A stretch of 64,000 bases of DNA, taken from NCBI GenBank assembly GCA_030603365.1, contig JAUVXV010000009.1, positions 32,001-96,000 on the forward strand, given 5' to 3'. Positions 12,991 through 16,583 of the stretch are shown here, piece by piece; position 1 is the first letter of the stretch, and every line of letters begins with the position of its first letter. The translations under genes and the position numbers were made by a program. The stretch is from Candidatus Heimdallarchaeota archaeon (lineage in GTDB: Archaea; Asgardarchaeota; Heimdallarchaeia; Heimdallarchaeales; Heimdallarchaeaceae). The notes beneath the pieces are model-generated. The model was not told where the DNA came from. It made no database searches and saw only the letters and a program-made list of their open reading frames with translations.

Positions 12991-13527
12991 GTGATTCATT
13001 TGTCTAAGAGAAACTATATTACAAATAAGATCGTTCTAATAGGAGATGCAAGAGTTGGAAAGACCTCTCTAGTTAGAAGATTCGTTACTAATATGTTTGA
13101 TCCTTCCTATAAAATAACTCTGGGTACAACAATTATGAAAAAAGAACTTGAATATCTTACTAACAATGTGATACTAGCAATTTGGGACATTGGAGGACAA
13201 GAGGTTTTCAGACAAATTAGAAGTAAATACTTCTTTGGAAGTAAAGGGGCTCTTGCAATTTGTGATGCTTCTAACCTTGAATCTTATAACAATCTATCTT
13301 CTTGGGTTGAATCCTTCAGAAAAGAAGTTGGAGATAAACCTATCATTTTTCTAGCAAATAAATGTGACTTAAAGAATTTAGAAGTAACTGAAGAACATAT
13401 GAAGAAAATAGTGGAAACTTACAAAAATACAGAATTCATGTTTACTTCAGCGAAAGATGGAACTAATACTGAAAAAGCCTTTACTAATCTTACTAGACTC
13501 ATGGTCGAAGAAGAGGATATAATCTAA
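12991..13527 (+). CDS. Rab-like small GTPase
   Basis: KIVLIGDARVGKTSL, YKITLG, IWDIGGQE, NKCDL, TSAK. No C-terminal Cys tail. Confidence 0.93.
   Translation: MIHLSKRNYITNKIVLIGDARVGKTSLVRRFVTNMFDPSYKITLGTTIMKKELEYLTNNVILAIWDIGGQEVFRQIRSKYFFGSKGALAICDASNLESYNNLSSWVESFRKEVGDKPIIFLANKCDLKNLEVTEEHMKKIVETYKNTEFMFTSAKDGTNTEKAFTNLTRLMVEEEDII
13457..13527 (+). repeat. Direct repeat copy 1 (last 71 bp of the Rab-like gene)
   Basis: Ungapped alignment to 14734-14804 with 59/71 identities, counted by eye. Confidence 0.9.
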
Positions 13528-15289: not shown

Positions 15290-15386
15290 TTGATAATGTT
15301 TATGATTAGTAATAAAAAAAGCTAACTATCGAAACTTGAACCAAGTAAAAAAATTTTTAAAACTTACATATATGAAGAAGATAATT

Positions 15387-15461
15387 GCCCCGATAGTATA
15401 GCGGCTAGTATTGTGGATTGTGGCTCCATAGAGGCAGGTTCGAATCTTGCTCGGGGCACCA
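15387..15461 (+). tRNA. tRNA-His (GUG), CCA encoded
   Basis: Acceptor stem GCCCCGA/TCGGGGC, D arm GTATAGCGGCTAGTAT, anticodon stem GTGGA/TCCAT with loop TTGTGGC, T arm GCAGG-TTCGAAT-CTTGC, discriminator A plus CCA. AT-rich TATA-like box about 25-30 bp upstream. Confidence 0.96.
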
Positions 15462-15545
15462 CTTCTTTTTCTAAACAGCATTCTCAAGTAAATTAGGAAA
15501 GTTTAAAGCGGAGTAATTTTCAGTTTTAGATGTCGAAGTGATAAT

Positions 15546-16052: not shown

Positions 16053-16583
16053 TTAATCTCTATTTTCAATGCTTGTGAGTATCTGGTCACCCATTGCAAG
16101 AAATGCATCAGCGACATTTGTTCCATTTTTAGCAGAGGTTTCAATGAACCCTATGCAACCAGAATCTTCAGCAAATTTCTTACCTTCTTCAGTAGATACA
16201 TCTCGTAAATCTTCTAAATCGTTTTTATTACCAACAAGCATAAGCATAATGCGAGGACTTTCATTTTGAGCTTCTTGTATCCATGTCTTAAGATTTTCAA
16301 AAGATTGACGTCGAGTAATATCGTATGTTACAAGAGCTCCTAAACTGCCTTTGAAAAAGATTTGTCTCATTGAAGCAAAACGGTCCTGACCTGCAATATC
16401 CCACAATTGAAGGCATATTCTTGTGTCTTTGATTGTTTCAAATCTTGAATATGGTTCCATTCCTATTGTCATTAAATATCCAGCTTGGAATTTATTGTGG
16501 ATGAACCTTTGTACAAGACTTGTTTTCCCAACAGCCCCATCTCCAAGTAATAAAATCTTGAATGTATATTTGTAGCTAGTCAT
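16053..16583 (-). CDS. Rab-like small GTPase
   Basis: FKILLLGDGAVGKTSL, TIG, LQLWDIAGQDRF, YDIT, GNKNDL, ETSAK. Confidence 0.95.
   Translation of the reverse strand: MTSYKYTFKILLLGDGAVGKTSLVQRFIHNKFQAGYLMTIGMEPYSRFETIKDTRICLQLWDIAGQDRFASMRQIFFKGSLGALVTYDITRRQSFENLKTWIQEAQNESPRIMLMLVGNKNDLEDLRDVSTEEGKKFAEDSGCIGFIETSAKNGTNVADAFLAMGDQILTSIENRD

Follow-up and report, generated by a model that had tools for sequence, protein, structure and literature searches.

An extra guanosine at the 5' end (G-1) marks the histidine tRNA in almost all life. According to reviews, archaeal tRNA-His has C at the discriminator position (C73), and the change to A73 is placed early in eukaryotes (PMC3245924). In the eukaryotic Thg1 pathway A73 is accompanied by the lack of an encoded G-1 (PMC3245924), the guanosine being added after transcription without a template. 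The systems known so far to function without G-1 are alphaproteobacterial or protist. Caulobacter crescentus and related Alphaproteobacteria have a single A73 tRNA-His with no G-1 (Yuan et al. 2011, PMC3064791), coupled to a histidyl-tRNA synthetase (HisRS) lineage unlike that of their relatives, and changes to the anticodon there cause 91- to 1000-fold losses (PMC3064791). The HisRS of Trypanosoma brucei is likewise G-1-independent, and a role for the anticodon has been reported for both this enzyme and that of Acanthamoeba (PMC4338351). The HisRS of Nanoarchaeum equitans tolerates A73 but still needs G-1 (PMC10100707).

The gene described here lies in a window of 64,000 nucleotides (the whole stretch of DNA that was analysed) from a Candidatus Heimdallarchaeota archaeon. 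The host is a member of the Heimdallarchaeaceae, and its HisRS shares 70% identity with the enzyme of Heimdallarchaeota AB_125 (G080) of the same genus. The tRNA-His(GUG) gene is intact (Table 1; Rfam 55.3 bits, E 2e-11), with an acceptor stem of 7 bp (GCCCCGA/TCGGGGC) and a variable loop of 4 nt. A73, the T preceding G1, the short variable loop and the encoded CCA had all been pointed out in a first-pass annotation, and each is confirmed by the sequence, ARAGORN and Rfam. Of the 42 ARAGORN calls for the genome (3.65 Mb, 89% complete) it is the sole tRNA-His; a second, canonical C73 copy was sought and is not found among these calls.

Table 1. Features of the tRNA-His locus and of nearby genes, in window positions
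Feature	Position	Strand	Source or remark
TATA-like box TTTTTAAAA	15354..15362	+	Sequence; putative promoter element
Position -1: T, no encoded G-1	15386..15386	+	Sequence
tRNA-His(GUG), intronless, CCA encoded; G1 at 15387	15387..15461	+	ARAGORN; Rfam RF00005
GTG anticodon	15420..15422	+	ARAGORN
A73 discriminator	15458..15458	+	Sequence, Rfam; C73 in canonical archaeal tRNA-His
Encoded CCA	15459-15461	+	
T-rich tract after CCA	15463..15472	+	Sequence; likely archaeal transcription terminator
Lhr-type helicase with AlkZ-like winged-helix tail, 1908 aa	3971-9697	+	
Separate AlkZ-like winged-helix protein, 779 aa	9698-12037	+	Next after the Lhr-type helicase
Ras/Rab-family small GTPase	12991-13527	+	Flanks the tRNA region
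Tyr/Trp-rich protein, 378 aa	13556-14692	+	Probably secreted; no Pfam match
Ras/Rab-family small GTPase	16053-16583	-	Flanks the tRNA region

The TATA-like box is directly preceded by an A-rich stretch and starts 33 nt before G1, which implies a short 5' leader to be trimmed. In 10 of 13 Heimdallarchaeaceae members compared, a similar box precedes G1 by 31-37 nt, with varying spacing. RNase P RNA is present in the genome (163.5 bits). The neighbours of the gene (DUF2122, a cytidylyltransferase-family gene and the Ras-family GTPases) show no apparent functional link to it. The encoded CCA is not special to tRNA-His, as nearly all tRNA genes of the genome have it, and T is also the commonest base at -1 among the other tRNAs (20/41). 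All four tRNA-Ser genes of this genome carry T73; the usual serine discriminator is G73. Several tRNA genes of the genome have introns at non-standard positions, leading to ARAGORN miscalls.

The tRNA body is identical to a canonical G-1:C73 Asgard tRNA-His at 56 of 72 positions, which indicates a true histidine orthologue. An origin from tRNA-Glu, to which 52 of 75 positions are identical, is not favoured in comparison. The G1-C72, C2-G71 and C3-G70 pairs and A73 are common to both tRNA-Glu of the genome, and a tRNA-His could not be told apart by its acceptor end alone. The D arm GTATAGTGGTTAGTA and the loop TTGTGGC, which had been likened to those of human tRNA-His, vary within the family and are not diagnostic, since they are also present in ordinary G-1:C73 Asgard tRNA-His.

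Asgard families are given by code in what follows. The Heimdallarchaeaceae are f1, f2 includes Kariarchaeum (Kariarchaeaceae), and f6 includes JABLTI01 and presumably represents the Gerdarchaeales. Family f16 is Hermodarchaeia-type, named by clustering with Hermodarchaeota-named proteins, and f26 (Promethearchaeaceae) includes two cultured members, P. syntrophicum MK-D1 and Ca. L. ossiferum. Family f5 includes B3_Heim, a genome of the Hodarchaeota clade (PMC8813620).

A73 is found in all 49 tRNA-His genes read from four families of Heimdallarchaeia (29 in f1, 7 in f2, 2 in f4 and 11 in f6). All but one of these lack an encoded G-1 (48/49); the exception has G at -1. Across the 29 Heimdallarchaeaceae genomes position -1 is T in 22, A in 5, C in 1 and G in 1, and the mature sequence of the host tRNA-His is identical in six other genomes of the genus. 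The order Hodarchaeales, by contrast with these families, has G-1:C73 in 18/18 tRNA-His (16 in f5 and 2 in f28, which we infer to belong here from its C73 state and its GTDB listing). Outside the class, G-1:C73 is present in ~40 f10 genomes and also in members of f8, f9, f13, f17, f18, f20, f23, f25, f27, f31 and f32. A73 without G-1 recurs in f16 (10/10), in f26 (8/8, MK-D1 and L. ossiferum included) and in G342 (f33). No tRNA-His was recovered in G092 (f3), AB_125 or G158.

Beyond the Asgard archaea, all recognisable tRNA-His of ~280 genomes from four phyla carry C73 among the matches listed, in a sample (at least 65 Thermoproteota, ~91 Halobacteriota, 117 from a phylum resembling Thermococci and relatives, and 11 small-genome archaea) that consists of kin rather than independent genomes, is without Thermoplasmatota, Nanobdellota, Micrarchaeota and Methanobacteria, and was searched with a pattern that detects mainly intronless tRNA-His and is blind to G73. 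The possibility that A73 is common in archaea at large, raised in the first-pass annotation, is thus not borne out among these matches.

The context and form of the gene differ among the A73 families. In f16 (L261-L270, L071) the gene for the A73 tRNA-His immediately precedes hisS, in the same orientation, in 10/10 genomes and often has two or three introns. The last two bases of its leader are usually GT and could pair with A73 and C74; GTGCCGGG is repeated just 5' of the tRNA in several of these genomes. In the Promethearchaeaceae (L351, which is MK-D1; L338, which is L. ossiferum; L354; L355) tRNA-His has A73 and no G-1 and starts with A1-U72, as in MK-D1, or with G1-G2, as if a former G-1:C73 pair had been shifted into the 1:72 position. 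The gene is within a few kb of hisS where this was checked. In the Gerdarchaeales (L206, L207, L347) hisS is ~0.1-10 kb from tRNA-His on the same contig, near a gene for an aromatic amino acid lyase (histidine ammonia-lyase family, PF00221).

The hisS gene of the host is located outside the window (G000:C3:71009-72505) and encodes 499 aa. Close relatives of this HisRS (E<1e-95) are found only in f1, f2, f4, f6 and f16, whereas the other Asgard families tested give E>1e-41. The enzymes of these five families form one clade in quick trees (SH-aLRT 98-99), and every member whose tRNA-His was read carries A73. One clade sequence labelled Bathyarchaeia (P0114) is treated as a mislabel and attributed to a genome of the Gerdarchaeales family (G204:C43). 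Viral contigs contain no clade HisRS, only matches of 27-35%. The HisRS of G092 (L299), from the same order as the host, is very divergent and falls outside the clade.

Several positions around the G-1 pocket are altered in the clade. Arginines of the T. thermophilus R115/R122 type bind the G-1 phosphate (Tian 2015, PMC4357726); in the host enzyme they are replaced by T117 and K124. Position 115 is T in 55/56 clade enzymes versus 1/118 outside, and position 122 is K in 44/56 versus R in 118/118 outside. Loss of R115 alone is not diagnostic, because many C73 lineages also replace it (by E, N, Q or P). The RGG motif of the pocket is REE in the host, but this motif is variable elsewhere too. The insertion segment, which forms the acceptor-stem clamp, is 166-177 aa long in the clade versus 82-133 aa outside, with one outside exception. 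In a structural model (pLDDT 85.6 for the whole protein, 91.5 for the domain) the ~60 extra residues are helices; in a fold search ~100 of the 163 residues of the domain align to HisRS-family domains, and the extra helices have no clear match. In the Promethearchaeaceae (L351, L338, L354, L355) the motif-2 Gln of HisRS is missing, and the loop of the G-1 pocket carries a short insert.

When N73 is mapped on a tree of 49 Asgard HisRS for which it is known, A73 needs three changes (shuffled mean 15.6). They correspond to the Heimdallarchaeaceae-type clade, to MK-D1 and its group together with G342, and to the pair of G220 and G230. Hermodarchaeia are placed next to Gerdarchaeales with 91% support under LG+G4; this position is not resolved under a mixture model. 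Eukaryotic HisRS was compared by profile scores against the PDB rather than placed in the tree, and on this measure the host enzyme scores 239 bits to T. acidophilum HisRS, 182 to that of Trypanosoma and 123 to human HARS. The fold search gives the same top order, T. acidophilum and then trypanosomal HisRS. The C73-lineage enzymes of Hodarchaeales and f10 score higher to human HARS (219 and 213 bits) than does the host, and MK-D1 HisRS scores 98. The Hodarchaeales enzyme with 219 bits is of an RDGP type (L211, L212, L309), and a HisRS related to it goes with an A73 tRNA-His in two f26 genomes (L291, L292).

Thg1 (PF04446) is found in none of the 83 genomes of the class, the host included, nor in 19 f16 and 14 f26 genomes. 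Two of the 83 are closed A73 genomes of the Heimdallarchaeaceae, Ca. Heimdallarchaeum endolithica and one matching H. aukensis. The same search is positive in 16 of 400 Asgard genomes overall and in the M. acetivorans control. An internal control, G009 (f14), combines T-1 and C73 with a Thg1, as expected for templated addition. An HMM built from 14 Asgard Thg1-like proteins and run unfiltered on all six frames of the host genome returns only a P-loop protein at 16.6 bits. This match, on contig C17 (E 0.005), was rejected; it is P-loop kinase-like, aligns outside the catalytic motifs and is near the reversed-sequence background.

The best reading of these observations is a tRNA-His/HisRS pair that is independent of G-1, probably reads the anticodon, and is convergent with those of Caulobacter and trypanosomes. 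This reading is considered likely, although several points count against it. Q117 (E. coli Q118), which is linked to the reading of C73, is kept in 56/56 clade enzymes; K at 122 is a conservative replacement, and 12 clade enzymes keep Arg; and U-1, the majority base at -1, could pair with A73. The last point is central to the quite unlikely alternative that RNase P cuts at -1 and leaves the encoded U-1 paired with A73, for a HisRS that still recognises an additional 5' nucleotide with its phosphate, irrespective of the base. U-1:A73 lengthens the stem in the predicted fold, -1 is T not only in most of the family but in all 10 Hermodarchaeia-type genomes, and the HisRS of A. pernix accepts A-1 and C-1 (PMC9976931). 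However, an unpairable A is found at -1 in the five Heimdallarchaeaceae noted above, 4/7 Kariarchaeaceae, 2/2 f4 and 7/11 Gerdarchaeales. T at this position also matches the genome background, and the arginines that would hold the phosphate are altered. Of the two alternatives offered in the first-pass annotation, a G-1-independent HisRS agrees with the distinct clade and its altered arginines, while untemplated addition of G-1 finds no counterpart in the Thg1 search. Such addition, by an unrecognised Thg1-like or an unrelated enzyme, would fit a gene pattern that is that of Thg1-using eukaryotes (PMC3245924), and HisRS does retain Q117 and the remainder of motif 2, in a genome that is incomplete. 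It is nonetheless rated very unlikely, as no Thg1 occurs in the class, closed A73 genomes included, and as archaeal Thg1-like proteins copy a template and would place U, not G, opposite A73 (PMC3245924, PMC3061083).

The annotation had further suggested that this would be an RNA-level eukaryotic signature. On such a view A73 without G-1 would have been inherited from the Asgard ancestor of eukaryotes, with C73 in Hodarchaeales and others secondary, or would have been acquired by eukaryotes from this branch. A73 is confined to Asgard archaea within the archaeal sample and occurs in the class nearest eukaryotes (PMC12222021). The proposal is not supported. C73 is retained, in nearly all cases together with G-1, by Hodarchaeales, which is the order most commonly put beside eukaryotes, and by the other Asgard families read. 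Human HARS is nearer to the C73 lineages than to either A73 lineage scored, and A73 takes three separate changes on the HisRS tree. Most eukaryotes still use G-1, so the common feature amounts to one base. Published placements put eukaryotes next to Hodarchaeales or next to Heimdallarchaeia as a whole (PMC12222021), and convergence is the simpler explanation under both placements given the C73 of Hodarchaeales and most other Asgard archaea. Common origin of the eukaryotic and Asgard A73 therefore seems highly improbable. A metagenome assembly that is 89% complete could contain errors of sequencing or assembly, or the gene could be a second copy without function. The chance of this is negligible, as A73 is present in 29/29 family tRNA-His, two from closed genomes, with no C73 tRNA-His found in any of these genomes, and the identical sequence is found in six other genomes of the genus. 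The A73 state could also be an intermediate, with either a non-Thg1 untemplated addition of G-1 or a eukaryotic A73 rule that goes back to an Asgard stage without G-1, older than eukaryotic Thg1; this is unlikely.

Comparison with the described systems shows partial agreement with each. The canonical archaeal system shares the orthologous tRNA body and RNase P RNA, and differs in C73 and in having either an encoded G-1 or a Thg1-like protein that adds it from a template. The eukaryotic pathway depends on a Thg1 that is lacking in the host lineage, and the HisRS of the host is not of the human type. The Caulobacter-type pair has G1-U72 where the host tRNA has G1-C72, and Gly in motif 2 in place of Gln118 (PMC4338351), which is Gln in all clade enzymes. 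Its host is a bacterium rather than an archaeon, and dependence on the anticodon is only predicted here. As in T. brucei and Acanthamoeba castellanii (Rao and Jackman 2015, PMC4338351), there is no true Thg1, the 1:72 pair is Watson-Crick and the Caulobacter-type Gly is missing. The trypanosomal HisRS is the second-closest solved structure, but its identity of just ~25% is insufficient for close kinship. T. brucei has U73, and its HisRS keeps R122 and is without the 60-residue addition. Class 2 of Rao and Jackman, that of the G-1-independent pairs, is characterised by the lack of both an encoded G-1 and Thg1, as is found here; a mature tRNA without G-1, its charging in that form and reading of the anticodon are predicted, with the motif-2 changes and the acceptor end common to tRNA-Glu as indirect support.

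In the G-1-independent reading, the gene would be the housekeeping tRNA-His of this archaeon, transcribed with a short leader. In the absence of a G-1:C73 pair, RNase P would cut at +1, its standard site. G-1 would not be added, and the mature tRNA would begin at G1. It would be charged by a lineage-specific HisRS that does not need G-1. Since the acceptor end equals that of tRNA-Glu, the GUG anticodon and the shape of the backbone probably provide the identity. By analogy with the enzymes of Caulobacter and trypanosomes, the anticodon is likely to be the main element when G-1 is missing, and the extra insertion-domain helices might conceivably add backbone contacts. The A73 state probably had a single origin in the branch of Heimdallarchaeaceae, Kariarchaeaceae and Gerdarchaeales. 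The Hermodarchaeia have it too, probably through joint transfer of tRNA and synthetase in either direction, and it appears to have arisen separately with other HisRS types in the Promethearchaeaceae. Asgard A73 would thus be convergent with eukaryotic A73 and not derived from a common ancestor. A literature search, with most subscription papers outside its reach, found nothing on Asgard tRNA-His identity, and the G-1-less A73 state is apparently undescribed for archaea.

Whole archaeal lineages have A73 with neither an encoded G-1 nor Thg1, on three separate Asgard HisRS lineages. The switch from C73 to A73 has happened more than once, in step with the type of synthetase, and is no single eukaryotic innovation; caution is warranted in scoring A73 as a eukaryotic signature. 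The same tRNA-His state is available in two cultured species, P. syntrophicum MK-D1 and Ca. L. ossiferum, and the tRNA-His/HisRS pair is a candidate orthogonal histidine pair, a role already demonstrated for that of Caulobacter (PMC3064791). The pattern suggests that tRNA-His is recognised here by a rule so far undescribed for archaea, and not that the trait has a common origin with that of eukaryotes.
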